A model generated the notes under the pieces. It had not been told where the DNA came from. It saw only the letters and a list, made by a program, of their open reading frames with translations, and did no database searches. Shown here one piece after another: positions 5,211 to 51,043 of a DNA stretch of 64,000 bases. The translations under genes and the position numbers were made by a program. How positions within the stretch are numbered: position 1 is the stretch's first letter; each line of letters begins with the position of its first letter. The DNA comes from an uncultured Candidatus Saccharibacteria bacterium. Lineage in GTDB: Bacteria; Patescibacteriota; Minisyncoccia; Phycocordibacterales; JAKAEA01. The stretch is from positions 66,271 to 130,270 of the forward strand of contig CAZNZK010000001.1 of NCBI GenBank assembly GCA_964577595.1, given 5' to 3'.

Positions 5211-6932
5211 TTATTTCCAGCTATTGTTATAGGCATTGACGCTTGCGGTATCAATGACGTCATTGTTGGCAAAGGATGCAGCGGTATTGTCGCGCACCAC
5301 CACATTGTGTGCTTGGCCAACCCAAATTAAAGCGTCGCCTTGGCTAACCGTGTTATTAGCTATCGTTATGTTTCTGCCTTCCCAAATACCGATACCGCCA
5401 ACGTTAGTCGGCCCGGCATAAATAATATTGTTGAGTATGGAAATCTGATTACAGCCCATATCGCCAGTGCGTACTGCAATACCCGAGCTACCTCCAGGGG
5501 TGCCAATCACATTGTTTTGCGCGGTGGTGTGAGTAGAAGATTCTTCAAACGTAAGGTTCCCGATCGTGTTGCCCGAGATGGTACCCTGGCGGCTGGAGTT
5601 TATGGCTATTCCGCCCGGTACGGTGTCATTGGTTAGTTGATAATTCGTGGTCAGAATAAGCGAAAATCCTCCATGACCGCCCGCTTGCGTGGTGTTGAGT
5701 ATGTGCACGTGGTCAATGGTAAAATTGGTGCTGAAAAGTGTCATGATGGAAACATCGGCTTGGGGATTACTAAAGTGAATCGCCAGATTTTTTATGGTGA
5801 TGTGGTCGGCGGGAGCGGTTACCGGCCAAACGGTCAGGTAGTTGTTGTTCGCGGCCTGACCGCTCGGCAGGAGGTTGGCGTAATCGCCCGAACCGATAAC
5901 GTTATTGATGAGGGTCACTACAGTTTGTCCCTGCGCGTTTGTGGTGACCGAAGCAACGGTCACAAACTCAGAAGGAGCCGGTGCGTTGAATTCGTTGGGC
6001 ACGTCAAGAGTGCCGCCGTATTGACGCTCCAGTACGCGAGTGGCACTCATGCCGTCAGAAAGAAACAGTGTGTCGCCAGTCCTGAAGGGGACGGATTGGC
6101 CAAAGACAATAGTATTACCGGTCACTGATTGAACGGGATTGTAGGTCGCCGACTGATTCACCGTTGCTCCCACCGTAATGGGCATGCCTTGGTAGTCGCC
6201 GCCGTGGTAACTGTCAAAAAAGTCCAAAACAGTCTGGTCTCCTTGGCCGCTGAACGTAATATTGCTTCCGTATAAATGGAGGCCGCTTGCAAGTTTGAAT
6301 GTGCCGGCAGGAAGAGTGATGGTAGAGATTTTGTTTTGATTCGCCACATCTATCATTTCTTGGATAGTGGCGGTGTCGTCGGTGCTATCGTTGGGATGCA
6401 GTTGTGCCGCTAAAGCCGCAAGCCCCGTGCCGGAAGACTGAAACGCGGGTGTGGTAAAAGCGGTGACGGGGTTTGTGATTGTGTTGGTGGGGGTCGTCTC
6501 TGGCTGTGCCGGCAATGGTGTCATGGTCGGTGCGGTAGTATTGAAGCTGACAGCCGCATTTTGGCACTGGGTGGTCACTAAGTATCGGCGGGTAAGCGTA
6601 CCCAAGATTCCTGTCCCGTGGGCCAGTCCATAGGGCAAAAGCACACTTTGCGTATGCAATTGCTGATAGTGAATTACCGCTGTTTTGGTGGCTAAGCCGT
6701 AAAAAGTGGTTTCATGCTGAGGGGATCCGTTGCCGGCCGTGGCAACTTGTGTTGCCGGATTTTCATTGAGAATAATCTGCAGTCGCTGTACGTCGGCACC
6801 GCGGTCTCCTAATTTTAAATTACGAGGGAAACTGCACGCTACCGCGGCAGACGCAAAGTGCAAAGGGAAGAATCCGGATAAAAGAAGTAGGGAAACAAAG
6901 CCCAGCTTCGGAAGCAACGTTTTCATCCTCAA
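5211..6932 (-). CDS. secreted right-handed beta-helix (pectate-lyase fold) protein with N-terminal peptidoglycan-binding-like domain
   Basis: Signal peptide MRMKTLLPKLGFVSLLLLSGFFPLHFASAAVA. PG_binding_1-like LKLGDRGADVQRLQIILNE. Many NxxG/ parallel beta-helix repeats (NNTVSQG, NNTAASFANN, ILNNIIYAG). Confidence 0.5.
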   Translation of the reverse strand: MRMKTLLPKLGFVSLLLLSGFFPLHFASAAVACSFPRNLKLGDRGADVQRLQIILNENPATQVATAGNGSPQHETTFYGLATKTAVIHYQQLHTQSVLLPYGLAHGTGILGTLTRRYLVTTQCQNAAVSFNTTAPTMTPLPAQPETTPTNTITNPVTAFTTPAFQSSGTGLAALAAQLHPNDSTDDTATIQEMIDVANQNKISTITLPAGTFKLASGLHLYGSNITFSGQGDQTVLDFFDSYHGGDYQGMPITVGATVNQSATYNPVQSVTGNTIVFGQSVPFRTGDTLFLSDGMSATRVLERQYGGTLDVPNEFNAPAPSEFVTVASVTTNAQGQTVVTLINNVIGSGDYANLLPSGQAANNNYLTVWPVTAPADHITIKNLAIHFSNPQADVSIMTLFSTNFTIDHVHILNTTQAGGHGGFSLILTTNYQLTNDTVPGGIAINSSRQGTISGNTIGNLTFEESSTHTTAQNNVIGTPGGSSGIAVRTGDMGCNQISILNNIIYAGPTNVGGIGIWEGRNITIANNTVSQGDALIWVGQAHNVVVRDNTAASFANNDVIDTASVNAYNNSWK

Positions 6933-9593: not shown

Positions 9594-10112
9594 ATGACCT
9601 CAAAACAGAATATCGATCGAAGCGCCCAGTTAAGCGGGGCCCGTCATAGTTATGAAAATGGGCTTGTTAAGCACGCGTTTTTCAAAACAAACGATCAGGC
9701 GCTGAGCGATAATTTATCACAAGACACGTTTATGAAAACTTGGCAATATCTGGCCAAGGGAGGGAAAATCATCATCATGAAGGCTTTTTTGTATCACATC
9801 ATGAATAACCTCATCGTGGATGAATATCGGAAACGCGGAACAACTTCACTCGACGTTCTTTTGGAACAGGGTTTTGAACCGAGTACCGATGATGCCAGTG
9901 ATATTTTTAATCTTTTAGATGGAAAAACGGCAATGCTTTTGATTGGGCGTTTGCCGATCACCTATCAAAGAACGATGCATTTGCGGTATACGGAGAACAT
10001 GTCACTTTCAGAAATTTCTTTTGCTACTAAACAAACAAAAAATACCGTTGCCGTGCAAATCCATCGAGGACTGGAAAAAATGAGACTATTATGCGCGCCG
10101 GCTCACGCGTAA
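9594..10112 (+). CDS. RNA polymerase sigma-70 family, ECF subfamily sigma factor
   Basis: Region 2 (FMKTWQYL...FLYHIMNNLIVDEYRKR) and region 4 HTH (MSLSEISFATKQTKNTVAVQIHRGLEKMR). Confidence 0.6.
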   Translation: MTSKQNIDRSAQLSGARHSYENGLVKHAFFKTNDQALSDNLSQDTFMKTWQYLAKGGKIIIMKAFLYHIMNNLIVDEYRKRGTTSLDVLLEQGFEPSTDDASDIFNLLDGKTAMLLIGRLPITYQRTMHLRYTENMSLSEISFATKQTKNTVAVQIHRGLEKMRLLCAPAHA

Positions 10113-10268
10113 AATAAAATGAGAACAACATGCTCTGGATAATTATTGTCGTTTTGGTGGTCCTGTGGCTTCTCGGGTTTAGTTTTTCCATAGGCGGTGG
10201 TCTTATCCACCTCCTGCTCGTTATTGCGCTTGTCTTGGTTATTGTTCGGCTTCTGACGTAGTAGGTCA

Positions 10269-10338
10269 AAAATAGGTTCGAATCCTATTTGGGGTATCAA
10301 AAAATCACGTTGATTTATAAAGAGGTTTTCGGCGGCTC
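10269..10338 (+). repeat. direct repeat copy 1 (~70 nt) containing a tRNA 3'-end-like segment (T-arm ATAGGTTCGAATCCTAT plus acceptor 3' strand TTGGGGTA)
   Basis: Near-identical to 11583..11654. GGTTCGAATCC is the canonical T-arm. No matching tRNA 5' half upstream. Confidence 0.55.
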
Positions 10339-10427
10339 CGAGGGCTGGACGATGTTAGAACCTGGTTGCAGGAGTGTCCGTAGAGTAAATATTTGGATGT
10401 TAGTCAATTTGATATACTTCAGTTAAC

Positions 10428-11582
10428 ATGAAAAACTCTCAAAAAGCTTTCATTGTCCCTTTGTTAATAATTATTGCAGTGTTGGTGATTGGGGCTGGAA
10501 TCTATGTTTATGCGCAAAGTAAAATTCAATCACCAACAGAACAAGCTGTTGGTCAACCATATCCAAATAACAGTCTAGAAGATTGTATGGCCGGAAAGCT
10601 TGATCAGCCGCCCGTATACTGTTTTGAATTCACCTTACCCCCGAGTACCACTTTTCAAGGGGTGATGAATTCCTGTCTGGCATTGCCAGATAATCAGTAC
10701 GTGACTGATTTGGGCCCATATGAAAAAGCTTCCTGGTATCCAAGTAATTTTTCCTATCAAGAATATTGTGTTTCTCACTTAGCATCAGATATTATTGAGC
10801 CACAAAGAAATTATCCTTCTACCGACTTTCAAAAGAAATTTTTCCCAAATTTTGTATTACCCGACTTCAGTATTTCTGTCTACAACACAATTGATTATGC
10901 ATTCCAAGCAAAAGTCTGCACTAATTATGGTGTCGTTACTAATTCACCTTCGAAATCGGACCGATGTCTACTTTTTTCTTTCTTAAATCGAATGACGATC
11001 AAGCCGGGTGTCACTGACACTGACAATCAAGTGTCCATTTTTTGTGGCGCCTTAAGTTCAGAGAGTCTGTCGTCGCAATGTAAAAACGTTAAACCTCTCT
11101 CTATAGATACTGCAATTTCGTCTAACTCAAAAAAAGTGGTCGTTCCACCAGTCATAACTTCTTGGACAACATATGTAAGTTCAACGCTAGGTATTTCTTT
11201 CAATTATCCGGCAAGCTGGACACAGCCTGCGTATGTTGGACCAGATACAGGTCTTAACCAGCTTACTTTTAAAGATGGACTGTTTGTAAATATTGGCTTT
11301 AGAGATTCTTATGCAAACAAGTGGATAACACTGAATGACTACCTTAACCTACAAAACACTACTGGCGCTTCAGGATATTCCTCAAAGACAGGTAGCATAA
11401 CAGTAAATGGTAAAAACTATACTACAGTCACCTCTTTGTCTTATGGCCAAGTTGTTGAAAATTCAGTGATTATTCCTAATCCGAATTCAGCAACGAACTT
11501 CGTTATTTTTGATGACGGTGGAAAGATTGATGCAAAAACTTTTAACTCTATCGTTAGTAGCTTCAAATTTATCGGTCCATAA
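10428..11582 (+). CDS. hypothetical secreted/membrane-anchored protein (Cys-containing extracellular domain)
   Basis: 384-aa ORF. N-terminal TM/signal anchor FIVPLLIIIAVLVIGAGIYVYA. Exactly bracketed by the two direct repeats. Confidence 0.4.
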   Translation: MKNSQKAFIVPLLIIIAVLVIGAGIYVYAQSKIQSPTEQAVGQPYPNNSLEDCMAGKLDQPPVYCFEFTLPPSTTFQGVMNSCLALPDNQYVTDLGPYEKASWYPSNFSYQEYCVSHLASDIIEPQRNYPSTDFQKKFFPNFVLPDFSISVYNTIDYAFQAKVCTNYGVVTNSPSKSDRCLLFSFLNRMTIKPGVTDTDNQVSIFCGALSSESLSSQCKNVKPLSIDTAISSNSKKVVVPPVITSWTTYVSSTLGISFNYPASWTQPAYVGPDTGLNQLTFKDGLFVNIGFRDSYANKWITLNDYLNLQNTTGASGYSSKTGSITVNGKNYTTVTSLSYGQVVENSVIIPNPNSATNFVIFDDGGKIDAKTFNSIVSSFKFIGP

Positions 11583-11654
11583 AAATAGAGGTTCGAATCC
11601 TATTTGGGGTATCAAAAAAACACGTTGATTTATAAAAGAGATTTTCGGCGGCTC
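11583..11654 (+). repeat. direct repeat copy 2 (~70 nt) with tRNA 3'-end-like segment
   Basis: AAATAGAGGTTCGAATCCTATTTGGGGTATCAAAAAAACACGTTGATTTATAAAAGAGATTTTCGGCGGCTC matches copy 1 with 3 small differences. Confidence 0.55.
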
Positions 11655-11821
11655 GACGTTGTGCGCGAGGTAATAACCTTTTGGAAGACCAATAAAGAGC
11701 ACATTTATATCCCGAATTATAGGGATGGATTGTTTAAGATTACACAGCCGACAGAGGTAGAGATGGCGGAGTATCGGTAGGGTTTTAGCAAAAAGGGGTT
11801 AAAAATGATAAAGTTTAACTT

Positions 11822-12334
11822 ATGGAAATAAAATCAACTCTCACAAATCAATCTGGGCAAGTATTGGATGTTGCATATAACGATATCAATAGTGAGCTTG
11901 ACCTCGGTTATAAAAAAATCCAAGGCGTACATGCTTACTGCTTTTGCGAAGGTAAGTTGGTACTCGTATATGCCGATAAGAAAGGATATTGGACCCCACC
12001 AGGTGGTGGAGTTGAGGCTGGTGAAAGTGCTCGTGATGCAGTAAGACGAGAAGTAAAGGAAGAGACAAATATGAATGTTATCAGACAGCGCTTTATTGGT
12101 TGTCAGGATATAACAGAGCCACAAGGTGTTGTATCACAAACTAGATCAGTATGTATTGTTGAACCATTCGGTCCTTTTACTAATGATCCAGATGGAGACA
12201 TTACAAAGATTGAACTTATTGACCCTGCTGACTACAAGAAATATTTTGATTGGGGCGAGATTGGAGACCGCATTATGCAACGTGCACTTGAACTAAAAAA
12301 GCAGATGGATTTAGAAATGAATTACGTTAAGTAA
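11822..12334 (+). CDS. NUDIX hydrolase
   Basis: Nudix box GGGVEAGESARDAVRREVKEETNMN (GX5EX7REUXEEXGU). Lies in an AT-rich stretch. Confidence 0.7.
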   Translation: MEIKSTLTNQSGQVLDVAYNDINSELDLGYKKIQGVHAYCFCEGKLVLVYADKKGYWTPPGGGVEAGESARDAVRREVKEETNMNVIRQRFIGCQDITEPQGVVSQTRSVCIVEPFGPFTNDPDGDITKIELIDPADYKKYFDWGEIGDRIMQRALELKKQMDLEMNYVK

Positions 12335-12354
12335 GTTGAGACTACGCTTTATTG

Positions 12355-13323
12355 CTAAATTTCTTGAACTTTACTCTTAGCAAAATCCCAGAACTTTTGT
12401 GCAAATTCAACCTCTTTCAATACATACATATAGGGCGCCTGAATTAGAGCAGCGACGACTTGTAAGTAGGCTCTAACTTTCGGATCTAGTTTGGTATTTC
12501 GAACCTCTTCAAACTTGCTGAACATTGCGTCTGCATACTCTTTACCAGCCAAGACCTCAAGATCGGTAGCGGGTCTACTTATAGAATACGCATCGTTTTG
12601 AATTCTCCATATTCTCATTGGTGGCATAGAATCAATAAAATTAACCTTGTTATTAGAGAAAAGGATGTTACCACCATGATTATCGATAGATGCGAGATAT
12701 CTTTTGTTATCAAAATTCTTAAAATATGTATACGATGAAACAAAGGACTTTATCTTATCGATTATCGCATCTGCCTCTTGTTTTGGAATAAATTCAGAAC
12801 CCATATATAACCACTCTCTTGTACTCTCTAGATTTTGTAAATCTAAATCAACATAAGACATACTGAAAAGATCTTCCATGTCTGTGTGTTTTATCTCAGT
12901 CAATTTTTCTGTACGCTTAAACATCTCCTCAGTAATAAGTTCAAGGTTTTCTTTTGTGAAAGTCTTGTTTCTAATATGATTAAATAAAGTCTGGGAATCA
13001 TCTATTTTCTTCATGAGAATAAAATAGTCCTCCGATGTATCATGAGTTGCTTCGATAAAAGTATCACCGTCTCTTTTTACATATCCAAGCTTAATATAGA
13101 TATCAGGTGCCATGGTGTTATTCCATGTAAAATCGTTGTGATAGAACTCGTGTCTAAAACGATCATCTGAAAAATCACCAAAAAAAGCTTTGTTGTATTT
13201 ATATACTTTATATACATCATCACCAAAGAAAAAGAGCTTCGAGATAAGAGTTTCAATTACACGCTCTGGCTTGCCAAGTTTATTAAAATTTCCATTTTCA
13301 ATTGTTTCAATTAAGGTCGTCAT
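12355..13323 (-). CDS. protein-kinase-like fold phosphotransferase (APH/choline-kinase-like) family protein
   Basis: Brenner-type catalytic motif IDNHGGNILF (HGDxxxxN-like) and downstream IDSMPP (DFG-like) at appropriate spacing. AT-rich codon usage. Confidence 0.4.
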   Translation of the reverse strand: MTTLIETIENGNFNKLGKPERVIETLISKLFFFGDDVYKVYKYNKAFFGDFSDDRFRHEFYHNDFTWNNTMAPDIYIKLGYVKRDGDTFIEATHDTSEDYFILMKKIDDSQTLFNHIRNKTFTKENLELITEEMFKRTEKLTEIKHTDMEDLFSMSYVDLDLQNLESTREWLYMGSEFIPKQEADAIIDKIKSFVSSYTYFKNFDNKRYLASIDNHGGNILFSNNKVNFIDSMPPMRIWRIQNDAYSISRPATDLEVLAGKEYADAMFSKFEEVRNTKLDPKVRAYLQVVAALIQAPYMYVLKEVEFAQKFWDFAKSKVQEI

Positions 13324-13392
13324 ATTTTTCTATTATAACATAAAAAGATAAGGGCTCCGTCTTGCGACAGAGCCCTTGGTTGAGTGTTGAGA

Positions 13393-14052
13393 TCACGAAC
13401 TGAACTGGCTCGCAAAGAGTTCGGCAGGAAGTTTGCAATCAAACTCCCGACTATACTCCCTGAACGTTGCCCGAACGTGTATGTGACCTTTCTTGTCCGA
13501 AGCGGTGAGCTCCATTTTGATGACTTCGCCGTGAATGAGAGGCTCCTTGAAACCAAACGTTGCCGCTAGGTCCCAAAGAACTTCATAGTGCGAAGTGTGG
13601 ATCATCACGTCCGGTAACTTGTCGGCGACGAATCGCTCGAACAGGCTCCCGAGATACGTGAAGAAACGGTGCTGAATCGCAGAACGTTTCTCGATGGCCA
13701 CGCCTTCTTCGAACCGAGGATCACTTGCATACGCTCGGTCCACATCACGCGCCGAGGGGAAGCTCGACCAGATGGCATTCGCAGCGTCGTTGTCATAGAA
13801 ATCCATGCAACGAATTGCGAGCTCATGTTCGACTTCCTCGTAGGGGTATCCCAATTTCTTGGCGATGATGTCTGCAGTCCCGAGTGCTCTCGGTAACGGC
13901 GAGCTGACGATACGAACGTCCTCGTTCTTTCCGACGATGTCGAGAATTTCAGCGGCTGCTTTGCCGATTTGTTCTTTTCCTTCGTCAGTCAGATCAGAGA
14001 ACTGTCCCGTATAGGCAGTTTTGCCGTGTCTCAAAAAGATCAGTGTTTTCAA
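13393..14052 (-). CDS. histidine phosphatase superfamily (phosphoglycerate-mutase-like) protein
   Basis: N-terminal LIFLRHGKTAY (RHG catalytic motif). ~220 aa. Confidence 0.7.
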   Translation of the reverse strand: MKTLIFLRHGKTAYTGQFSDLTDEGKEQIGKAAAEILDIVGKNEDVRIVSSPLPRALGTADIIAKKLGYPYEEVEHELAIRCMDFYDNDAANAIWSSFPSARDVDRAYASDPRFEEGVAIEKRSAIQHRFFTYLGSLFERFVADKLPDVMIHTSHYEVLWDLAATFGFKEPLIHGEVIKMELTASDKKGHIHVRATFREYSREFDCKLPAELFASQFSS

Positions 14053-14615: not shown

Positions 14616-14936
14616 CTCCCCCGGGAGGATTCGAACCTCCGACCAATCGCTTACACGAGTCCTTCTATTACTAAAAGGGGTGGACTATATCATTTCCATG
14701 AACCGTGAGGTTTTTAGGAATGAGGCGCTTCCGCAAGAATCTTAAAAAATTCTTGAGTACTCCCGCAAGGGGATAGTCTCTACACCTTCAATGACTTTCG
14801 TCAAAGCTTGGCTCGGTATTGCCCACACGATCGTTTATCTTGGGGGGTTCACCGAATTCACCTCATTTTCAACCACTATTTTCAAAGTGGTGCTGCCTTG
14901 AGACAGGCGACTGCTCTACCGCTGAGCTACAGGGGA
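14616..14936 (-). tRNA. tRNA-Asn(GUU) interrupted in the anticodon loop by a 249-nt group I intron (exons 14903..14936 and 14616..14653)
   Basis: Minus-strand 5' exon TCCCCTG-TA-GCTCAGCGGTAGAGC-A-GTCGC-CTGT. 3' exon TAA-GCGAT-TGGTC-GGAGGTTCGAATCCTCC-CGGGGGA-G. Acceptor pairs with one G.U. Joined loop is CUGUUAA. U1-A72 and G73 as in bacterial tRNA-Asn. CCA not encoded. Confidence 0.7.
14654..14902 (-). other. group I self-splicing intron (subgroup IC3-like) within tRNA-Asn
   Basis: 5' exon ends in U, which pairs as U.G in P1 (exon CUGU / internal guide GCAG near the intron 5' end). Intron ends in G. Conserved core elements present: CCGAGCCAAGC, GAAGGTGTAGAGACTA (P7 5' strand) and GATATAGTCC (P7 3' strand / P9.0). 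Confidence 0.65.
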
Positions 14937-15485: not shown

Positions 15486-16295
15486 TTAGAGGTATCCTTT
15501 GGCAAAATCGGGCCAATTCATTTCTTGTTTGCCTTCGGGGATGACGCGCTCTATGAGGAAGGTGCGTTTTTCGTCGCTATAGTCTACTTCGGTGATAATG
15601 ATGCGTTGGCGACGGCCTTTGCGTTCAATAAAAAAGTGAGCCTTTGGCCAGTGGGAGAACGCTTGGATTTTTAGAAAGTTTTGATACGGGTCACCGGCTA
15701 AGAATTTTTTTGCCGGGTCAAAAGCAAGTTCCCCGTCATTTTTGGTGATTTTTTTGGTGAACGTGGCGAGGGCGTGATTTTGCGGCTCCGCTGGAATTTT
15801 GCCGGCGAGCCATTCGGGCAGGATTTTTGCCAATATATTTCCGCCAATACCACCAAGTTTTATTTCCATTTTCTGGTAGCTGGGTGGCCATGCGCTCACG
15901 GTCACTTTTTCTTGAGCTATAAGAGGGCCATGATCCACATCTTTATCCATGAGCATGATTGAGACGCCTGTGGTGCTGTCATCGGCAAGGATAGCTGATT
16001 GTAGGGGAGAGGGGCCGCGGTATTTTGGTAACAACGAAGGGTGAACATTAAGCGAGCCGTGCTTCGGGAGATTTAAAATTGCTTCGGGAATGATTTGACC
16101 ATATGAGGCAACAATAAAAACATCCCAGCCACCAGCGGGCGCTTTTTCTTGTAATTCTTTCAGGCTGATTTTTTTAGAAGCGTCAGTAATAATAAGGGTG
16201 GGTATAAAACCAGCGGCTTCCAGCTCATTCATGACAAGGATTGAAAAGGGCGATTCACTGCCGAAAAAAACGTAGGAGATTTTCATTATAGACAT
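15486..16295 (-). CDS. fmt: methionyl-tRNA formyltransferase
   Basis: Formyltransferase N-domain motif SLNVHPSLLPKYRGPSPLQ. Lies downstream of def. Confidence 0.7.
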   Translation of the reverse strand: MSIMKISYVFFGSESPFSILVMNELEAAGFIPTLIITDASKKISLKELQEKAPAGGWDVFIVASYGQIIPEAILNLPKHGSLNVHPSLLPKYRGPSPLQSAILADDSTTGVSIMLMDKDVDHGPLIAQEKVTVSAWPPSYQKMEIKLGGIGGNILAKILPEWLAGKIPAEPQNHALATFTKKITKNDGELAFDPAKKFLAGDPYQNFLKIQAFSHWPKAHFFIERKGRRQRIIITEVDYSDEKRTFLIERVIPEGKQEMNWPDFAKGYL

Positions 16296-16930
16296 TATAG
16301 AATTGTGCTTTCGGCGGGTGGTTCCTCGCGCAGATCTTTGGCTGAATCAACAAAAAGGATACCATTGAGGTGGTCGGTTTCGTGCTGGAAAATTTGGGCC
16401 AAAAGGCCGCTTGCACCGCGGGTAAAAGCTTGGCCACTTTCGTCCAAGGCTTTAACCGTGGCTTTTTCGGAGCGGCGGACGTTGCCATAGAGCCAGCGCA
16501 CGGAAAGACAGCCTTCAAGCATCGTTTGTTTTTGGCGGGAGAGCTTGGTTAATTCAGGATTGATAAAAACCATGTCGGCGGGAATGGTGCCCGCCGTTGC
16601 CATCTCTTCTAACTCTTTATTTTCCAGGTCGGCGTAATTGGGCAGGAGGATTTTTCCGGCAACCACAAAGATGCGCCATGGCTCGCCGATTTGCGGCGCG
16701 GCTACGGCCACGGCGTCTGCCTGCTCGGCGATGACGCGCTTCATACGCTCAATAATGCGCTTCAGCTTGGCTGAGCCGAAAAAGTCTGCGGGCACGGGTT
16801 CGGCTTTTTGACGCAGAACTGGGTCGCCTTTTTGCACTACAGCTATTGGCGTGGCCTGAACATTTTTTACTGGCGCCTCGGCCTGCGCGGCGACTGTTTT
16901 TTTAGCAGATTTTTTTGAGGTGGCTGGCAT
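16295..16930 (-). CDS. def: peptide deformylase
   Basis: All three PDF motifs: VAVAAPQIG, EGCLSV, QHETDHLNG. Lys-rich N-terminal extension. Confidence 0.8.
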   Translation of the reverse strand: MPATSKKSAKKTVAAQAEAPVKNVQATPIAVVQKGDPVLRQKAEPVPADFFGSAKLKRIIERMKRVIAEQADAVAVAAPQIGEPWRIFVVAGKILLPNYADLENKELEEMATAGTIPADMVFINPELTKLSRQKQTMLEGCLSVRWLYGNVRRSEKATVKALDESGQAFTRGASGLLAQIFQHETDHLNGILFVDSAKDLREEPPAESTIL

Positions 16931-17002: not shown

Positions 17003-18925
17003 TTAGAGCAGGCTTTCCGGGTCAATATTAACGCTGAGCGTTGGCGGCAGGGCGGCCAACTCGGCGTGCAGCTTGCCGCCGGGCCAGGTGCCGCGGGGCA
17101 GGGCCAGTAATAAGTGCATGCGGAATTTGCCGCGGGCGAATTCTACAAAAGCCGGGAACATGATTGGTTTGTAATTCTGGAGGTGGCGGGCCAGAGCGAA
17201 CATTTCTTTTTCCACTTCGGCGCGGTCGCCCTCGGCGGTGATTTTGATGAGGGTGGTGCTCGGCGGGTAGCCCAGACGTTCGCGCTCGGCAAGTTCGTCG
17301 CGGTGGAAGTCGGCGGCGTTACCACTCTGGGCGGCCTTGAATGCCGGCTGAGCGCCGGAACGGCTCTGAATCAAAAATTGTTTTTGGGCGAGTGAGCGCA
17401 AGCGCAAAAGCAGATTGGTGACTTCTTCACCGATGCGGAAATCGGGGATTGAGAAAAGGGCATCGGCACTGGCTACGGCCACGTTTTCCACGGGCTTATC
17501 TAAATAGGCAACGGCCAGTTCGGTGCCCAGCAATACCGAGCCGGGCGAATTATAAAAGTGCTCTACCCGTTCGCGGGCTTCGCGTCGGTTAGCGATAGAG
17601 TCGCTATCAAGCTGAAAAACGTTCAGGTCGGGAAAAAGGCCGGTCAAGGCTTCGGCCACGAGGGTGATGCCAATGCCAAGCGTGGTGAGGTTCCAGGAAT
17701 CACAAATGCTACAGCGCTCGGCGGCACTACGCCGTTCCCCACAGCGATGACACAGAAAAAATTGCTCGGCTTCGTCGCCACCGCCGCTGCGGTGTAAAAC
17801 GATAGGCGCGCGACAGCGTGAACAAAGCACGGTGGCGCCGCAGTCGCCGCACACCGTGGTGGGCGCTAAGCCGCGCCGAGCGCAAAAAAGAAAGAGGCGC
17901 TCATTGTGTTCGCGGTTTTCGCGCACTAACGTTTCCAGCTCGTCACTAATGATGCGGAATTCCGGCCGGTCCAATATTTTATACTTTTTCATGTCTACCA
18001 GGCGGGCGGCGGCACTGGAAAGTAGGCGGAACTTCAAGGGCACCAGCTCATGAGCTTCGTCGCGGTTGACCCGGTCTAGGGTTTCGGCGCGCAGGAGGAT
18101 GTCGCCGAGCACTAGGCGAATGCCGAGTTGTTTAGCCAGTATCTCGGCGGCGCGGCGGATATCTACGAACGGTCGAGCTTGCTGTTTGTAGCCCGTGGCC
18201 GCTTCACGCTCCACAATAATAGTGCCGAGGTCGGCCCGGGGCAGGCACAAAAAAGCGCCGGTAGCGATGATGAGTAGGGGATGCGGCTCGCCGACGGCGC
18301 GGTTCCACACTTCGGCGAGCTGTTTTTTTGTCATCGCGGCATTGGCCACGAGCGTGTTATTTTCAATGCCTTTAGAGAGTGTCTCAAAAGCACGAATACC
18401 ATCCTGAATAGTTGGCAGAACCACAAACACCGAACGCTTCCGGGCGAATTCTTCGCGAATAATACTCTTATAATGAGCGAAGCGGTCGCTGTCGTCGGCT
18501 TGGAGGACGAGGGGCGGCAAGGGTAAGTCGGCTATTTTTTTCACCACCATGCTCGCGGGTTCCTTCAGGGTGGCAGCCTGCTCCAGGATTTTTGCCGGCA
18601 CTAAAGCCGCCACTACATTGCCCGTAGTGCCGACAAAATAGTGCGCCAACTCGGCGCACGTTTGCATGAAAGGATTCAGAAATAGTTGCCCTCCGGCCTT
18701 CTCGCCAATCTTACTGGTTCCGACACTGCGTAAAGCAAAAGCAGCTGTTTTTACTTCGCTTTTAATATTGGCCGCCAGCACACTCTCCAGCACAATAGCC
18801 GCTATCAGCCGCTTGCGTAGGGGCACTTTAATGACCGTGCCTGGCGGGAGCAGGGCGGCGCTAAAATAAGTGAGGGTTTCCGCTTGGAGACCGCGGCGAA
18901 TGGGGATGACGCGGACGATGAACAT
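17003..18925 (-). CDS. priA: primosomal protein N' (PriA)-like, with degenerate Walker A/B motifs
   Basis: Cys-rich zinc region CGDCGATVLCSRCRAPIVLH...CHRCGERRSAAERCSICDS. Helicase-domain colinearity with PriA (VFVVLPTIQDGIR ... PLLIIATGAF ... TGYKQQ). Expected GxGKT is ADDSDRFAHYK and DEEH is EREA. Confidence 0.6.
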   Translation of the reverse strand: MFIVRVIPIRRGLQAETLTYFSAALLPPGTVIKVPLRKRLIAAIVLESVLAANIKSEVKTAAFALRSVGTSKIGEKAGGQLFLNPFMQTCAELAHYFVGTTGNVVAALVPAKILEQAATLKEPASMVVKKIADLPLPPLVLQADDSDRFAHYKSIIREEFARKRSVFVVLPTIQDGIRAFETLSKGIENNTLVANAAMTKKQLAEVWNRAVGEPHPLLIIATGAFLCLPRADLGTIIVEREAATGYKQQARPFVDIRRAAEILAKQLGIRLVLGDILLRAETLDRVNRDEAHELVPLKFRLLSSAAARLVDMKKYKILDRPEFRIISDELETLVRENREHNERLFLFCARRGLAPTTVCGDCGATVLCSRCRAPIVLHRSGGGDEAEQFFLCHRCGERRSAAERCSICDSWNLTTLGIGITLVAEALTGLFPDLNVFQLDSDSIANRREARERVEHFYNSPGSVLLGTELAVAYLDKPVENVAVASADALFSIPDFRIGEEVTNLLLRLRSLAQKQFLIQSRSGAQPAFKAAQSGNAADFHRDELAERERLGYPPSTTLIKITAEGDRAEVEKEMFALARHLQNYKPIMFPAFVEFARGKFRMHLLLALPRGTWPGGKLHAELAALPPTLSVNIDPESLL

Positions 18926-19109
18926 GGCTTAAATATAGGGGTCAGGGCCTAGTTTTGCAAACCAAACAAAAACTCCGCCGGAAGTATTAAAACTGTGGCG
19001 GAGCTTTGCTTAGCCTTGCGGGGATAACCACCCACTAACCATTGACACGTAGAAGTATAGCAGATTCTCTTTTACAGGCAACTATACGAAATAAAAAGTA
19101 TATTGCCTA

Positions 19110-19178
19110 AATTTTCTTGTAGGGGCGGCGGGAGTTGCACCCGCACGGCTAACGTGTCAATGGTTAGTTGAGACTCTC
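19110..19178 (-). ncRNA. tRNA-like structured RNA, family copy A (acceptor AGGGGCG/CGCCCCT, mini D hairpin, 9-nt loop CAUUGACAC, T-arm GCGGG-UGCAACU-CCCGC)
   Basis: 69-nt cloverleaf-like fold on minus strand. Near-identical to 52761..52831 with compensatory stem changes. Preceded by a conserved promoter-like motif and a leader hairpin. A hairpin plus U-tract terminator lies ~150 nt downstream at ~18957..18995. Confidence 0.45.
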
Positions 19179-19330
19179 TCGCGCCCCTATTACCGAGCAA
19201 TCTTACGAAATTGCCGGTACTTGTATTGTAGGCAGGGGTCGTTAAATTAGTCCTGAAGGAATAGTAAAGAAAAATTAAAATTCAACACTGCTCATTAGAA
19301 AAAACAAGATGTCAAATTTTCTGGTGCCGG

Positions 19331-21747: not shown

Positions 21748-21879
21748 GAATCAATTAATGCAGGCACGAGCCGGCTTCTTCTCACGGAGAGCCGGCTTTT
21801 TTCTGCATATCTTTTTTGGGAAATTTTTATTTTATTTCATTTGTAAAATCTTCAAAAATCACGTAGTATGCCTATATAT

Positions 21880-22893
21880 ATGGCATTTTTCTCCAAAAAA
21901 CTCGGCATTGATTTGGGCACTACTAATACGCTCGTTTTCGTGCCAGGGCGGGGGATTGTGCTCAATGAGCCTTCGGTAGTGGCTGTTTCGGAGCAGGACA
22001 ATGTTATTTTAGCGGTGGGGGCCGAGGCTAAAGCGATGATAGGCCGCACGCCCGACAACGTCATTGCCTACCGGCCCATGAAAGATGGCGTTATTGCCGA
22101 TTACCGTGTCACCGAAGCCATGCTCCGTTATTTTATTAGTAAGGCTCTTGGTCGCTGGAGTTTTTTTCGGCCTGACGTGCTTGTTTCTGTGCCAGCCGGC
22201 GTTACTTCCACTGAGCGTCGCGCGGTGGTAGAGGCGGCGGTGAAAGCTGGCGCTAAAAACGCCTACGTGGTTAAAGAGCCTATCCTTGCCGCTATTGGCG
22301 CGGGTATTCCTATTCAGGAGGCAATGGGCAGAATGATTTGCGACATTGGTGGTGGCACCACCGACGTGGCGGTGATTTCCCTTGGTGGCATCGTGGCGTG
22401 CACTTCCGTGAAGGTGGCCGGCAACAAAATTGACGCCGCTATCATTGATTATTTGAAGAAAAATTTTAACCTAGGGCTGGGCGATAAAACTGCCGAAGAC
22501 GTCAAAATTAAAATCGGTTCAGCTATTCCCATTGAGGATGAATTGACCATGACGGTTAAGGGTCGCGATTTTGTTACTGGCTTGCCGCGCTCGGTGGAGC
22601 TGAAAACCAATGAAATCGTCAAGGCTATCGGCAAGGAACTCACCGAAATGATCGGCGCCATTAAAACCGTTTTGCAGGAAACACCCCCTGAGCTCGCCAG
22701 CGATATTATTGATAACGGCATCATTATGACCGGCGGTTCTTCGCAATTGCGCAATTTGCCCGAGCTGGTTTTTCGGCGCACCGGCGTTAAGGCCGTTTTG
22801 GCCGACGAAGCCCTTTATTGCGTGGCTAAAGGCACTGGTTTAGCTTTGGAACATTTGGATGTTTATAAGAAGAGCATTATCGCCAAGCGATAA
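21880..22893 (+). CDS. mreB: rod shape-determining protein MreB (copy 1)
   Basis: MAFFSKKLGIDLGTTNTLVFVPGRGIVLNEPSVVAV...; actin-fold phosphate-1/2 and adenosine motifs (DIGGGTTDVAVISLGG, GIIMTGGSSQLRNL). Confidence 0.8.
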   Translation: MAFFSKKLGIDLGTTNTLVFVPGRGIVLNEPSVVAVSEQDNVILAVGAEAKAMIGRTPDNVIAYRPMKDGVIADYRVTEAMLRYFISKALGRWSFFRPDVLVSVPAGVTSTERRAVVEAAVKAGAKNAYVVKEPILAAIGAGIPIQEAMGRMICDIGGGTTDVAVISLGGIVACTSVKVAGNKIDAAIIDYLKKNFNLGLGDKTAEDVKIKIGSAIPIEDELTMTVKGRDFVTGLPRSVELKTNEIVKAIGKELTEMIGAIKTVLQETPPELASDIIDNGIIMTGGSSQLRNLPELVFRRTGVKAVLADEALYCVAKGTGLALEHLDVYKKSIIAKR

Positions 22894-23038: not shown

Positions 23039-23746
23039 GTGCCGTACTATATCAGTATGGTAGGCCAGTCTCAAAAAAAACTTGAAACTCTTTTTTCTAC
23101 CGACCAGCTACATCATGCCTATTTATTAGAAGGGGAGGCGGTAAGTATTGTACCGGAATTACGGCGCTTACTTGAAAAAGAGCTCGGTATTGTCGCCACG
23201 GGCAATCCCGATTTTCGCCATATCAAAACAGAGTCGCTGACGGTGGACGATGCTCGTCAGCTACGCGAAGCCCAGCAAGTTAGGACATTTTCCGGCGGCA
23301 AAAAAATCTTCATCCTTGAAGTGTCTACAATCACCAACGAAGCTCAAAATGCTTTACTGAAAATCCTGGAAGAGCCGACTACGGGCACTCACTTTTTTCT
23401 TACTATGCCGAGTCGCTGGTTATTATTACCAGCGGTGCGTTCGCGCTTACAAATTATCAGTATGGTGCCACCAGGTCAGAAATCGGGGTCAGGCACCGCT
23501 TTGGCCTTTATGAAAGCAGCGCCCGCCGAGCGCCTTGCCCTTCTCGTGCCGATTCTGGAAGAAAAAGATAAAGCAGCCGCGCTGGTTCTTGTTGACGACC
23601 TTGTCGCTTATACGCGCGAGCGCGGCGGATCGCAGAAACACGTTGTGCTTAAAGAACTACTCCATGTTCGTCAGTATGTAAACGACCGCTCCGCTTCGCT
23701 TAAGCTTCTGTTGGAGCATGTTGCGCTCACGTTGCCCTCGCTATAA
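23039..23746 (+). CDS. holB: DNA polymerase III delta' subunit-like protein
   Basis: HAYLLEG, QNALLKILEEP and RSRLQ motifs of clamp-loader delta'. No Walker A. Confidence 0.55.
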   Translation: MPYYISMVGQSQKKLETLFSTDQLHHAYLLEGEAVSIVPELRRLLEKELGIVATGNPDFRHIKTESLTVDDARQLREAQQVRTFSGGKKIFILEVSTITNEAQNALLKILEEPTTGTHFFLTMPSRWLLLPAVRSRLQIISMVPPGQKSGSGTALAFMKAAPAERLALLVPILEEKDKAAALVLVDDLVAYTRERGGSQKHVVLKELLHVRQYVNDRSASLKLLLEHVALTLPSL

Positions 23747-24331: not shown

Positions 24332-25741
24332 ATGACCGAAAAATCTCCAGAAATTCCAGCAGAGCCAACGCCTGAGACTGCTCCGGCCCAAAAACCGTCA
24401 AAAATTTCAGCATCCCAATTTAATCAGAGTGATATCGGTCTACTTACAAGTATGATTGGCGACCCCGAACAAAGAAGGCGAAACAAGGATCAGTTGACAC
24501 GGGTCGCAGAAAACGCAAGGAAAAATACTCAAGAGCAAGAACGGGCACAGTTGCAGCGGGTACGCGACGATCTTACGGAAAAGTCAGTATCGTTCCCAAC
24601 GCACAAGTTGGAGCAAGCGGTTCCAGAAACTGCTCCACAGAAAAGCGGTTGGGTTGTGAATTTTTTGCGCAGATTTTCCCGGACCGCTCAGCGAAATCCG
24701 CCGGAAATAAAACCACAAGAAATAAAAAAACCACAAGAAATAAAAATTGAAGAGAAGCCGGCACGGTTTACTGAAACAGTGGTGCCTCCGCCAGAGAAAA
24801 AAGTTGTTGCGCCTGGGCCTGAATATATCGCTGGCGCACCATTTAAAGTCACCAAAGAAGTAGTGCCTAGTGTGCCGCAGAAGGCTGGGTATACAACAGG
24901 ATCACCGTTTCTTGTCACGCACGAGGAGCCGGAGAAGTCGCCACAAACGGTGAATATTGAGGGCGTTGCCAAGGATTGGCTTATAAAAGAGAAACCGTCA
25001 CAACGAAAATCGACTGCGGAATATGCTACCAAAGCTCCTTTTTCTGTTACTCAAAGAGCTCCGGAAAATCCGCCGGTATTTGTTAAGGGAAAGGAGAACG
25101 TTACGGTGAGTGCGCCTGCGCCAAAAACCATTCCCGCTGAGCCGGTTGCGCCTGAAAAGAAAGGGTTTTTTGCACGTCTCTTTGGTCGGCGCTCTGAAAA
25201 AAAAGAGGAAGCCGTCATTCCAACACCACACAATCCACGCGCTCTCAAGGCACTTGAGGCCATAAAGACGACTCAAGAGGAAACAAGAAAAACCCATTTG
25301 TTAAAAATAACAAACGAGCAATTGAATACCTATTTCGGTGCTAATCAAAAGAAAACGGGCGATCCCGCCTTTTCTGGTTCAGAACAGCTTGCTGCAGCTA
25401 CTGGCGCGGCGAATCTACTCAAAAGATTAAAAGATCTCAACCCCTCGTCAAAAGATATCCCTGCTTTTGAAGCAAAACTTAATCGCGATACTGAAGGTGC
25501 TGCCACGCAGGCCGCGATGGATATTTTTACGCCGATGAAAAATTTCAATCAATACCCGAAAGGGCTACGTCAGACCCAGTTAGAAACTCTACTCTCGCGG
25601 CCGGAAGTGAGTCCGTATAAGGAGAGGATTCAGGCTGTATTACGAGAAATTCTTGAAAATCGCCAGAAGTCCCCGAAGCCCGAAGAGAAAGAAAGTACTC
25701 AATTTTTGAGTGACGTGCTTGCCGGGCAGGGTCGTCGTTAG
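24332..25741 (+). CDS. hypothetical Pro/Glu/Lys-rich protein with internal APF-x-VT repeats
   Basis: Low-complexity N-terminal half with repeated GAPFKVTKE / GSPFLVTHE / KAPFSVTQR motifs. More ordered C-terminal region. Confidence 0.4.
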   Translation: MTEKSPEIPAEPTPETAPAQKPSKISASQFNQSDIGLLTSMIGDPEQRRRNKDQLTRVAENARKNTQEQERAQLQRVRDDLTEKSVSFPTHKLEQAVPETAPQKSGWVVNFLRRFSRTAQRNPPEIKPQEIKKPQEIKIEEKPARFTETVVPPPEKKVVAPGPEYIAGAPFKVTKEVVPSVPQKAGYTTGSPFLVTHEEPEKSPQTVNIEGVAKDWLIKEKPSQRKSTAEYATKAPFSVTQRAPENPPVFVKGKENVTVSAPAPKTIPAEPVAPEKKGFFARLFGRRSEKKEEAVIPTPHNPRALKALEAIKTTQEETRKTHLLKITNEQLNTYFGANQKKTGDPAFSGSEQLAAATGAANLLKRLKDLNPSSKDIPAFEAKLNRDTEGAATQAAMDIFTPMKNFNQYPKGLRQTQLETLLSRPEVSPYKERIQAVLREILENRQKSPKPEEKESTQFLSDVLAGQGRR

Positions 25742-29104: not shown

Positions 29105-30253
29105 TTGGAAAACACTATGGCTACGCCTGCTCCCATCTCTTTCCGCCAACGCATTCGCGCCTTTCTTTCTAATGATATCGGCATTGACTTAGGCACGGCG
29201 AATACGCTCGTCTACGTGCGGGGGCGGGGGATTGTGGTGAACGAGCCTTCGGTAGTGGCGATTAATCAAAAAACAGGCATGGTGGTTGCTATTGGTACTC
29301 AGGCCAAGGACATGCTCGGGCGCACGCCCCAGCACATTACGGCAGTAAAGCCGATTGTTGAGGGTGTCATTTCCGATTTTGAAGTGACGGAAGAAATGAT
29401 GCGTTATTTACTCAAGCGCGCCCAGGAAGACGGCCGGAAATTTTTGGGGCCGCGTGTTGTTGTGGGTGTGCCCTCCGGCATTACGAATGTGGAAACGCGG
29501 GCAGTGCGTGACGCGGCTATTTCCGCCGGCGCGCGTGAAGTGCATATTATAGAAGAGCCAATGGCCGCGGCTATCGGCATTCGCTTGCCTGTTTTGGAAC
29601 CGGTGGGAAGTATGATTATTGATATCGGCGGCGGCACTACCGACATCGCCGTCATTTCACTTGGTGGCATTGTTGTTTCTAAAAACTTGAAAATCGCTGG
29701 CGACAAGCTTAATAGCGACATTATGAATTATATCCGCAATGAGTTTAAAATTTTAATCGGCGAAAAAACGGCCGAGTATATTAAAATAGCCATTGGCTCA
29801 GTTTCTGCGGAAGGAATGCCCGGTACTAGGACGGGTCGGAACAAAACGCCAGTTGGTGCGGTAAGTGAAATAGAACCACTGGAAGCGGTTATTCGTGGGC
29901 GCGATTTGGTGACCGGCTTGCCCCGTGAAGTAGTGGTAACTGATGTTGATATCCGAGAGGCCACGCGCCAATCCATAGAGACATTACTTGAGGCCGCAAA
30001 AGAAACATTAGAAACGACGCCGCCGGAAATTGTGGCAGATGTCATGCATCGCGGCGTACACGTCACTGGCGGAGGGGCACTTTTTCGCGGTTTGGCCGAT
30101 GTCTTGCGCGAGCATTTGAAAATTCCCGTGACCGTAGCCGACGATCCGCTTACCGCCGTGGCCCGTGGCACGGGTGTTGTTCTGGAAAACCTACCGCGCT
30201 ACATGGAGGTATTAATAAAGAACGATGATGCTCTTCCGTCCGCGAAATTCTAG
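29105..30253 (+). CDS. mreB: MreB-like actin homolog (copy 2, with ~40-aa insertion)
   Basis: IGIDLGTANTLVYVRGRGIVVNEPSVVAI..., DIGGGTTDIAVISLGG, HVTGGGALFRGL. Followed by mreC and mreD. Confidence 0.75.
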   Translation: MENTMATPAPISFRQRIRAFLSNDIGIDLGTANTLVYVRGRGIVVNEPSVVAINQKTGMVVAIGTQAKDMLGRTPQHITAVKPIVEGVISDFEVTEEMMRYLLKRAQEDGRKFLGPRVVVGVPSGITNVETRAVRDAAISAGAREVHIIEEPMAAAIGIRLPVLEPVGSMIIDIGGGTTDIAVISLGGIVVSKNLKIAGDKLNSDIMNYIRNEFKILIGEKTAEYIKIAIGSVSAEGMPGTRTGRNKTPVGAVSEIEPLEAVIRGRDLVTGLPREVVVTDVDIREATRQSIETLLEAAKETLETTPPEIVADVMHRGVHVTGGGALFRGLADVLREHLKIPVTVADDPLTAVARGTGVVLENLPRYMEVLIKNDDALPSAKF

Positions 30254-48191: not shown

Positions 48192-48586
48192 TAAAAAGGC
48201 AGATTGTGGATATCCTCTTGCACGATTTTATCAGTAGGAGTACTATCATTTCAGACACAAAATTCTTTTTTGGTTCCATTGGGAGCCAGGGTTTTGTCAT
48301 TTCTCTTGTTAATGTCGCGCAAGGATGTGCGACACGCCGGCCTGAAAGGAGCTGGCAAAAAAACGAGGAAATTTCATACGTTTCAATCGAAATGCTTGAT
48401 TCTATCGTGCTTAAAGCGCTTGTTTAGGGCCCTGGACTCACGTCGCGACTGAGTCGGACGGCCTACAGCAGAAAACACGTAAGGATCAAAATGGCTGAAC
48501 TGCGACTCACAACCGCGGTTCAGCTATTTTTTATTGGCAATGTGCACTATTGCCTTTTTATTAATATCTGTTAAAATAGCGAAACT

Positions 48587-49651: not shown

Positions 49652-51043
49652 TTAAAAATCATCACCTCCAGCTGGAGCGGCAAAATTATTATCCAGGGTA
49701 ACGAAACTCGTCTTTTTCTCGTCAAAGTAGAGCTCTGCCTTGCCGGTGGGGCCGTTGCGGTGTTTTTCAATCAGAATTTCGGCGATATTTGGCCGGCCCG
49801 AATCTTTATTTTGTTTATCTTCACGGTGAATGAACATAACCACATCGGCGTCTTGTTCAATGGATCCGGAATCGCGCAAGTCGGAGAGGCGGGGGCGGCC
49901 ACCGCGTTGTTCAACGGCGCGGGAAAGCTGGGAAAGGGCCAAAACGGGCACATCTAGTTCGCGGGCTAATTGTTTGAGTGAGCGGGAAATTTCGGTGATT
50001 TGTTGTACTAAATTGTCATTGGCCCGAGAATTGGTTGGTTGCATGAGCTGGAGATAGTCCACCACCACCAAGCCAAGACCCTTTTCTGATTTTAGGCGCC
50101 GCGCAGTAGAGCGCATCTTCAAAATAGTGTTAGCAGGCGCGTCGTCAATAAATATAGGCGCTTTAGAGAGGCGACTCATGCCTTCCTGGAGAGCGGTGAA
50201 GTCGTGCTCAACAAAACCGTGACCCGTGCGCAATTTCCAGGAATCAACACGCGACTCGGCGGCGAGCATGCGGTCAACGAGCTGTTGAGCGCTCATTTCC
50301 AAAGAAAATACTCCAACAGGGATATTGTGGGTGATAGCGGCATGGCGAATAATGTCCAAGGCGAGCGACGTTTTACCAACAGATGGGCGAGCGGCCAAAA
50401 TTATAAGATCCGATTTCTGTAGACCGGCCAGCTTGCTGTCCAAATCCTTAAAGCCGGTAGGGACGCCGCGAAGTTCGTCACGTGATTGGTGGAGCTTGTC
50501 AAAACGCTCCCAAGCACCAGCGAGTTCGTCGCCGAGCATGACGAAGCGGTGAGCAGTAGGGGCGTTGGTGACCTCAAAAACACGTTTTTCCGCGGAATCC
50601 AGCAATACTTCCAGCTCGTTGCCTTCATCGTAGCCCAGACGGTTAATATCCTCGCCACACTCAATGAGGTTACGCATCACAAACTTCTTTTCCACGATTT
50701 CCGCATAGTGCTTAATGTTGGCAGCCGATGGCACTGAGTTGACGAGCTCGCTCAAATAGCTGGCGCCACCAACGCGGTCAAGCTCGCCTTTTTCGCGCAA
50801 GCGGTTGGAAAGGGAGAGGAGGTCGATTGGTGTGGAAACATTTAAAAGATCCAGCATCGTTTGGTAGATAATGCGGTGGCGCTCGGCATAAAAAGAATCA
50901 GATTTAATTTGGTCCACCACTTCATGGATGACATCAGGACGGAGCATGACAGAACCCAAGAGGGCCATTTCAGCTTCCACGCTTTGCGGCGGCACCCGCA
51001 CGTACGGAGATTTTTGTTGAATGAGTTTAGATTCTGTTGACAT
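49652..51043 (-). CDS. dnaB: replicative DNA helicase DnaB
   Basis: N-terminal DnaB domain (ALLGSVML). RecA-like domain with Walker A ARPSVGKTSLALDI, Walker B VVVDYLQLM, arginine finger. 463 aa, no intein. Confidence 0.85.
   Translation of the reverse strand: MSTESKLIQQKSPYVRVPPQSVEAEMALLGSVMLRPDVIHEVVDQIKSDSFYAERHRIIYQTMLDLLNVSTPIDLLSLSNRLREKGELDRVGGASYLSELVNSVPSAANIKHYAEIVEKKFVMRNLIECGEDINRLGYDEGNELEVLLDSAEKRVFEVTNAPTAHRFVMLGDELAGAWERFDKLHQSRDELRGVPTGFKDLDSKLAGLQKSDLIILAARPSVGKTSLALDIIRHAAITHNIPVGVFSLEMSAQQLVDRMLAAESRVDSWKLRTGHGFVEHDFTALQEGMSRLSKAPIFIDDAPANTILKMRSTARRLKSEKGLGLVVVDYLQLMQPTNSRANDNLVQQITEISRSLKQLARELDVPVLALSQLSRAVEQRGGRPRLSDLRDSGSIEQDADVVMFIHREDKQNKDSGRPNIAEILIEKHRNGPTGKAELYFDEKKTSFVTLDNNFAAPAGGDDF

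Follow-up and report, generated by a model that had tools for sequence, protein, structure and literature searches.

The gene at positions 17003..18925 (minus strand) of the 64-kb stretch of DNA analysed here, which we refer to as the window, encodes the PriA orthologue of a very small, uncultured member of the Parcubacteria (Paceibacteria in GTDB style; phylum Patescibacteria). In this protein and in all 485 of its full-length homologues that we collected, helicase/ATPase motifs I, II, III, V and VI have been replaced or deleted. Elements that contact ATP have been erased and those that contact DNA or dock partner proteins have stayed under constraint, which is the pattern expected of a working pseudohelicase. 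The explanation that we favour, with a probability of roughly 0.7, is that a housekeeping PriA has here become a stable pseudohelicase, an ATP-independent and structure-specific platform that would bind forks and recruit DnaB.

The gene is an uninterrupted open reading frame (ORF) with an ATG start and encodes 640 amino acids plus a stop codon. Its product matches the PriA equivalog model TIGR00595 (E = 2.7e-66) over query residues 152-613 and up to model position 480 of 509, and the same model is matched by 46 of 46 sampled relatives (best E = 4.5e-76). Among solved structures, those of PriA from Klebsiella and E. coli (6dgd/4nl4) are also matched at the sequence level by HMMER, with E values of 4.8e-34 to 3.9e-31, and identity to E. 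coli PriA is ~23%. The models for actinobacterial PriA (PRK14873), a protein described by Rocha et al. 2005 as a putative orthologue of smaller size and great divergence (PMC1193525), are matched far less well (E = 3e-23 and worse) than PRK05580/TIGR00595.

An AlphaFold2 model of the 640-residue protein, built with 81 relatives as input, is confident, with a predicted local distance difference test (pLDDT) score of 88.4 and a predicted template modelling (pTM) score of 0.87. The top Protein Data Bank matches returned for this model by Foldseek are all PriA, with template modelling (TM) scores of 0.70-0.74. The best is 8fak_H, from E. coli PriA (E = 1.2e-37, TM 0.74), followed by the E. coli winged-helix-deletion PriA 6dcr (TM 0.73) and then by 4nl4 and 6dgd. 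The closest families other than PriA are Mfd and DbpA, at E ~1e-9. The two RecA-like superfamily 2 lobes are thus present in the PriA arrangement. The first-pass annotation of this DNA had described a protein colinear with PriA, comprising an N-terminal 3'-DNA-binding domain (3'BD), two helicase lobes and a Cys4-Cys4 insertion, and we could verify each of these elements.

We set the motif register by HMMER and MAFFT alignments to E. coli PriA, which agree with each other and with the register given by Foldseek. Percentages for alignment columns refer to the 485 full-length homologues unless otherwise given. The first-pass annotation had reported degenerate Walker A and Walker B motifs, with ADDSDRFAHYK and VEREAAT at the E. 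coli positions, and had proposed a profile alignment and a comparison with relatives as checks. Both uphold the claim, in that the HMMER and MAFFT alignments place the degenerate residues in the motif I and II columns and the homologues share the degeneration without exception. In motif I, E. coli VTGSGKTEVY lies opposite ADDSDRFAHY. The column of the Walker A lysine (K230) is R in 100% and K in 0% of sequences, the preceding G229 column is E or D in 98% (n = 485), two P-loop glycines have become acidic, and the position of the motif I threonine is taken by an aromatic residue. The signature GK[ST] is absent from the entire 640-residue protein. In motif II, E. coli IDEEHDS lies opposite VEREAAT; D320 is replaced by E in 74% of sequences (D in 26%), E321 by K or R in 84% and H323 by S or N in 84%, and E322 is retained in 98%.

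The loss extends beyond what had been noted at first, since motifs III, V and VI have gone as well. For motif III, E. coli has GSATP and the window protein GDILL; S356 is replaced by D in 94% of homologues and T358 is retained in 1%. For motif V, GTQMLAKGHHF is opposed to GTELAVA-YL, with the G kept in 95% and the T in 100% of sequences, the Q replaced by E in 96% and the K-G-H columns absent. For motif VI (QVAGRAGR in E. coli), columns A582-G586 are gaps in 100% of the 485 homologues, so that the arginine-finger segment has been removed. At the level of domain profiles, none of 46 clade members matches Pfam DEAD, ResIII or Helicase_C. As controls, E. coli PriA matches all three together with PriA-like_WH, and the dnaB and pilus ATPase genes of the same window carry a normal Walker A motif.

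With R148 at the K230 position, EREA in place of DEEH and a poor match to motifs I and II, the protein has the features of a PriA pseudohelicase in the sense defined for Deinococcus-Thermus by Lopper et al. 2015 (PMC4504706). The replaced and deleted residues indicate that ATPase activity is probably absent from this PriA. The first-pass annotation had suggested that ATP hydrolysis was lost and that the protein is either a pseudo-enzyme or a loader of the primosome that has no helicase activity. This reading is the one best supported by the Lys-to-Arg change, the Asp/Glu P-loop, the Glu-Arg Walker B motif and the motif VI deletion. Since a large clade shares this state without exception and Deinococcus-Thermus offers a published precedent, 'pseudo-enzyme' would here mean a conserved functional scaffold rather than a decaying gene.

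The homologues were gathered by word-index searching, done three times, and by one exhaustive search of representatives; of the 489 distinct proteins obtained, 485 are full length. When sequences were clustered at 50% identity, the best 150 representatives (E <= 1e-126) were all of the degenerate type. With each GTDB species represented by a single genome, clade-specific peptides were found in at least 378 genomes, with names that include Taylorbacteria, Parcubacteria, Paceibacterota and Minisyncoccia; further members are labelled Nomurabacteria and Yonathbacteria. Among the 485 relatives, which extend down to 33% identity, the intact form was found in none, the searches having stayed within Parcubacteria and the edge of the degenerate clade lying beyond their reach. 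Searches that started instead from the most distant relatives, P0242 at 33% identity and P0268, which branches early in a rough neighbour-joining tree, gave matches that were again all from Parcubacteria and all degenerate.

The remodelled protein is under selection. Between the window sequence and its two closest relatives, replacement differences amount to 0.17 per site (pN) against a saturated silent value of 0.76 (pS), and between these two relatives themselves the ratio of replacement to silent substitution rates (dN/dS) is 0.05. Few parts of the protein are as well conserved as lobe 1, where the ATP site used to lie. Residues conserved in at least 97% of homologues comprise Q142, R148, R157, F160, S165, P171, E241, P252, D255 and R257, and the remodelled site itself is strongly conserved (Q142, R148, E241 and D275). 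The motifs that have taken the place of the canonical ones form a conserved set of their own: Q-x-x-[DE][DE][DE]-R, E-[RK]-E-S-S and G-D-x-L-L-R. Thus, the degenerate state is fixed and under strong purifying selection, and is the product of neither decay nor error.

The DNA-contacting parts of PriA have been treated differently by evolution from the ATP-contacting parts (Table 1). The 3'BD family PF17764 gives a weak match to the query (E = 0.079) and significant matches to 40 of 46 clade members, and the 3'BD residues P8, L18, Y20 and G29 are each conserved in at least 97% of homologues. Motif IV preserves the E. coli residues R427 (99%), G429 (100%) and P432 (88%). Motifs Ia and IV and the Gly-Thr pair of motif V (95-100%) are the elements through which SF2 enzymes touch nucleic acid; what motif V has lost is its ATP-facing part. 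In E. coli PriA, the loop that follows motif II wedges into the fork junction (PMC10175261). The columns of the equivalent loop are here Y in 93%, K in 84%, P in 100%, D in 99% and R in 98% of sequences, with Tyr, Lys and Arg kept from E. coli and the invariant Pro and Asp being additions. The insertion in lobe 2 keeps all eight zinc-binding cysteines (C359, 362, 368, 371, 392, 395, 405 and 408), in columns that are 97-100% Cys. A putative C-terminal domain is recognized weakly by PF18074 (query E = 0.096; 3 of 46 members), and TIGR00595 and NF004070 align to the C terminus. We also attempted to map the SSB-tail pocket (W82, Y86, K370, R697 and Q701); these residues disagreed with the E. coli numbering, and we make no claim about this pocket.

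One domain has been lost. The first-pass annotation had remarked that the protein is ~90 residues shorter than a typical PriA, and this deficit (640 compared with 732 residues in E. coli) is genuine. In a pairwise map to E. coli PriA it falls on E. coli residues ~110-221, so that what has specifically gone is the winged-helix domain together with the stretch that precedes motif I. In their place there is a linker of 26 residues with the lowest conservation of any segment (0.26). The winged-helix family PF21213 (PriA-like_WH), which in E. coli PriA covers residues 114-176 (E = 1.3e-30), is found in none of 46 clade members. The winged-helix domain is variable among PriAs, and its absence is a weak criterion. 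Compared with canonical PriA (TIGR00595; 4nl4, 6dgd and 8fak), the Parcubacteria protein has the same order of 3'BD, two RecA-like lobes, Cys4-Cys4 insert and probable C-terminal domain, but lacks the ATPase motifs and the winged-helix domain. The E. coli winged-helix-deletion PriA (6dcr) shares this domain complement, but is engineered and retains an active ATPase core.

Work on other PriA proteins indicates what a PriA can do without ATP hydrolysis. The K230R variant of E. coli PriA (priA300) is devoid of ATPase, helicase and translocase activity but is near wild type in vivo and functional in restart assays (PMC5778457). With the K230A variant, DnaB is loaded on forks in vitro when PriB, DnaT and DnaC are present, and the ATPase is dispensable for the PriA-PriB pathway in vivo (PMC10175261). 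In D. radiodurans PriA, Arg stands in place of the same Lys; neither ATPase nor unwinding activity could be measured, the affinity for single-stranded DNA (ssDNA) and for forks is near normal, and the protein complexes with DnaB (PMC4504706). As of a 2017 review, Deinococcus was still the sole exception to the conservation of PriA helicase activity (PMC5778457). These results make an ATPase-independent role plausible for the present protein.

The Deinococcus-Thermus and Parcubacteria PriA proteins are alike in the Walker A Lys-to-Arg replacement, in a degenerate Walker B motif and in the fixation of this state throughout the lineage. They differ in that the Parcubacteria proteins belong to another phylum and have their own replacement motif set. 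Loss of motifs III, V and VI and of the winged-helix domain are features of the Parcubacteria PriA, and the comparison with Deinococcus, made through a published description, covers the Walker A and B motifs. Biochemistry has shown that the D. radiodurans protein is folded and binds ssDNA, forks and DnaB, and it is regarded as a restart factor devoid of helicase activity; the corresponding properties of the Parcubacteria PriA are predictions. The E. coli K230R and K230A proteins share with the present PriA the change of the same lysine, but they are laboratory point mutants of a canonical 732-residue PriA that works with the partners PriB, DnaT and DnaC, whereas the Parcubacteria PriA has a fully remodelled site and no winged-helix domain. 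Neither PriB nor DnaT is known from the Parcubacteria PriA lineage.

These observations suggest the following mechanism. The PriA of this Parcubacteria lineage would be unable to bind or hydrolyse ATP, and hence would neither translocate nor unwind DNA. At an abandoned fork or a D-loop, the nascent leading-strand end would be recognized by the 3'BD and the DNA contacted by both RecA-like lobes through motifs Ia and IV, and the lobe-1 loop would wedge into the junction. The zinc-bound cysteine-rich region would encircle the lagging-strand ssDNA and dock partner proteins, with a C-terminal domain probably also retained, and DnaB would be recruited either directly or through adaptors. By analogy with the ATPase-deficient PriAs described above, both the binding of forks and the reloading of DnaB have probably been kept, and the DnaB encoded in the window (Table 1) is the presumed client. 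Recent work in E. coli indicates that the movement of the cysteine-rich region and the recruitment of partners need lagging-strand ssDNA, which is otherwise made by PriA unwinding (PMC13594977). Because partner recruitment has this need, a PriA that does not unwind would act only where the lagging-strand template of a fork or D-loop has already become single-stranded, or would rely on another helicase.

What has become of the former nucleotide site is a matter for conjecture. Arg148, Glu241 and the acidic loop might form an internal salt-bridge network that fills it, a speculative arrangement. A broader proposal, tentative and on balance unlikely, is that the former nucleotide pocket (Gln142, Arg148, Glu241, the acidic loop and Asp275) has been rebuilt as a selected site that either locks the RecA lobes in a DNA-clamping state or serves as a docking surface. 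The winged-helix-less PriA would then recognize forks and D-loops whose lagging strand is ssDNA and recruit DnaB directly, with no need for PriB, DnaT, DnaD or ATP. Such a PriA would constitute a minimal one-protein restart system fixed across much of the Candidate Phyla Radiation, and would have an origin separate from the Deinococcus case.

Several points weigh against a pseudohelicase that binds forks and reloads DnaB. The TIGR00595 score of 224.2 bits is marginally under the trusted cut-off of 230.35. The loss of ATPase activity is, for every member of the clade, read from the protein sequence. In the 3'BD, the residue aligned to E. coli D17 is Ser or Thr, and the winged-helix domain, which in E. 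coli contacts the parental duplex, is absent, so fork recognition may differ from the E. coli model. None of PriB, DnaT, DnaD, DnaI and DciA was identified in the 64-kb window. Finally, a second, intact PriA encoded elsewhere in the genome, beyond the window and the flanks of the 80 related loci that we compared, is formally conceivable, if unlikely.

A wider role can also be envisaged, in which ATP-independent PriA would be the general DnaB-loading factor of these reduced genomes, at the origin as well as in restart. In its favour, the window showed no helicase loader. Bacteria without DnaC or DnaI may load their helicase through restart-type complexes, an idea put forward in a review (PMC3290774), and D. 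radiodurans PriA binds DnaB directly. However, our results carry nothing on origin function, and the observation on loaders covers the window, a small part of the genome. We regard this role as possible, though distinctly unlikely; it extends the pseudohelicase explanation and is compatible with it, rather than being an alternative to it.

A different possibility is that the gene is a repurposed paralogue with another job and that the true, ATP-active PriA is encoded elsewhere. The window is only part of a contig of at least 272 kb, the query falls just under the TIGR00595 trusted cut-off, and public records name the relatives "primosomal protein N'" or "hypothetical", the latter as 'hypothetical protein' in some NCBI records. 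The genomic context argues otherwise. Among 80 related loci, def lies directly downstream of priA in 47 and fmt downstream in 53, and the order murA-like>priA>def>fmt is common to most. The priA-def-fmt order occurs in Bacillus as well. This conserved position in most related genomes is that of a housekeeping priA, and neither the window nor the sequence flanking the 80 loci contains a second PriA-like sequence. Moreover, the genomes are very small, with gene-carrying contigs of 0.55-1.0 Mb, and no intact form was met among the 485 relatives. On the evidence of the window, the 80 loci and these relatives, we hold a repurposed paralogue to be highly unlikely.

Less probable again, and in our view very unlikely, is a protein that still works as an NTPase or helicase through a non-canonical site, in which Arg148 would take the role of the lysine or a partner would supply catalytic residues in trans. 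The conservation of the remodelled site does mean that Q142, R148, E241 and D275 matter for something, and the lobe architecture and DNA-contact motifs are retained. However, the K230R change by itself abolishes the ATPase of E. coli PriA (PMC4504706), and D. radiodurans PriA, with the same Lys-to-Arg change, has no measurable ATPase. To this replacement the Parcubacteria proteins add acidic residues for the P-loop glycines, an aromatic residue for the Thr, Glu-Arg/Lys for the Mg-binding Asp-Glu, the loss of motif III and the deletion of the motif VI Arg segment.

A pseudogene, frameshift, sequencing error or misalignment masking an intact GxGKT, the last three of which the first-pass annotation had itself named as fatal to its claim, can be set aside as having a negligible chance, given an uninterrupted ORF devoid of GK[ST], an identical 640-residue protein encoded on independently assembled Logan, ENA and JGI contigs (three assemblies), one and the same register from HMMER, MAFFT and Foldseek, 485 homologues that are alike and under strong purifying selection, and normal Walker A motifs in the dnaB and pilus ATPase of the same window.

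The PriA pseudohelicase as a type is already known from Deinococcus-Thermus. Full-text literature searches found no description of a PriA or primosome state of this kind in Patescibacteria, the Candidate Phyla Radiation or Parcubacteria, and the Patescibacteria lineage appears to be unreported. It would be a second and much larger natural lineage of PriA pseudohelicases, with at least 378 species-level genomes and at least 150 clusters at 50% identity, and what distinguishes it is its size, the completeness of motif loss and the accompanying loss of the winged-helix domain. Its existence favours the view that what PriA essentially does is recognize forks and nucleate primosomes independently of ATP. 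A further implication is that these very small genomes would restart replication solely from substrates that need no lagging-strand unwinding, or would use another helicase. For structural and biochemical work the lineage offers a naturally minimised PriA of ~630 residues. In annotation pipelines such proteins receive the label "replication restart helicase", or "hypothetical" because they score near the model cut-off.

Table 1. Elements of the PriA protein and other genes discussed, with their positions in the window.
Feature	Residues and sequence	Window coordinates	Strand	Description
3'-DNA-binding domain (3'BD)	1-112	18590..18925	-	PF17764; Foldseek alignment to PriA
Linker	113-138	18512..18589	-	Stands in for winged-helix domain and pre-motif-I segment (E. 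coli ~110-221)
Motif I (Walker A)	142-152 QADDSDRFAHY	18470..18502	-	Lys replaced by Arg148; P-loop Gly replaced by Asp/Glu
Motif Ia (nucleic-acid contact)	168-176 VVLPTIQDG	18398..18424	-	Retained; P253 column P 99%
Motif II (Walker B)	236-243 IIVEREAA	18197..18220	-	DEEH replaced by EREA; sole second Glu (E241) retained
Loop after motif II	246-257 YKQQARPFVDIR	18155..18190	-	Equivalent of E. coli aromatic-rich junction-wedge loop
Motif III	273-279 LGDILLR	18089..18109	-	SAT replaced by D-x-L
Motif IV (nucleic-acid contact)	345-355 FLFCARRGLAP	17861..17893	-	Retained
Cysteine-rich region, two Cys4 zinc sites	359-408	17702..17851	-	Intact
Motif V	464-475 VLLGTELAVAYL	17501..17536	-	G-T retained; Gln and KGH segment gone
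Motif VI remnant	503-512 TNLLLRLRSL	17390..17419	-	5-residue A-G-R-A-G segment deleted
C-terminal domain	526-640	17006..17350	-	Putative; TIGR00595/NF004070 alignment; confident AlphaFold2 model aligned to PriA structures
def (peptide deformylase)		16295..16930	-	Directly downstream of priA; PF01327, E = 1.6e-42
fmt (methionyl-tRNA formyltransferase)		15486..16295	-	Next downstream; PF00551, E = 8.8e-28
dnaB (replicative helicase)		49652..51043	-	PF03796, E = 3.6e-101; PF00772; intact Walker A AARPSVGKTS

On the other side of priA from def and fmt, at 19331-~20870 (minus strand), lies a gene for an XRE-type helix-turn-helix fused to an enzyme of the MurA/EPSP-synthase fold. The ORF listed for this gene reaches 21349 and has an over-extended N terminus; gene callers give a product of 512-518 residues. 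The same fusion gene is found upstream of priA in 65 of the 80 related loci. The gap between it and priA (18926-19330) measures 405 nt, as against ~15-100 nt in many relatives. Scanning this gap for ORFs, promoters and terminators gave several sigma-70-like promoter matches on the priA strand and no convincing ORF or terminator.

As for other replication and repair genes, dnaB belongs to a genome-maintenance cluster that spans 47088-51043 and also includes rmuC (47088-48191, plus strand) and, next to dnaB, recR (48942-49553, minus strand), and holB, for DNA polymerase III delta', is at 23039-23746. The window is a typical segment of a Patescibacteria/Parcubacteria chromosome. It also carries type IV pilus genes, a sortase, two mreB genes and an mraZ/rsmH/PBP/mur cluster. 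The two MreB paralogues, at 21868-22893 and 29105-30253 (both plus strand), lie within 8 kb of one another, with mreC and the gene of a PBP2-type transpeptidase coming after the second.

A tRNA-Asn(GUU) gene at ~14617-14936 (minus strand) has its anticodon loop split by a group I intron of ~249 nt (~14654-14902; RF00028, 53.3 bits). ARAGORN missed this tRNA in the raw window and called a 76-nt tRNA-Asn(gtt) after the intron had been removed in silico. Five ORFs of 322-573 residues have no Pfam match (E <= 1e-3 or 1e-4): 5211-6932 (minus), 10428-11582 (plus), 12355-13323 (minus), 24332-25741 (plus) and 60641-61930 (plus). The G+C content falls to 0.39-0.41 at window positions 10001-14000, compared with 0.45-0.54 elsewhere, in a region whose genes include one for a NUDIX protein and one for a histidine phosphatase, alongside unannotated ORFs.

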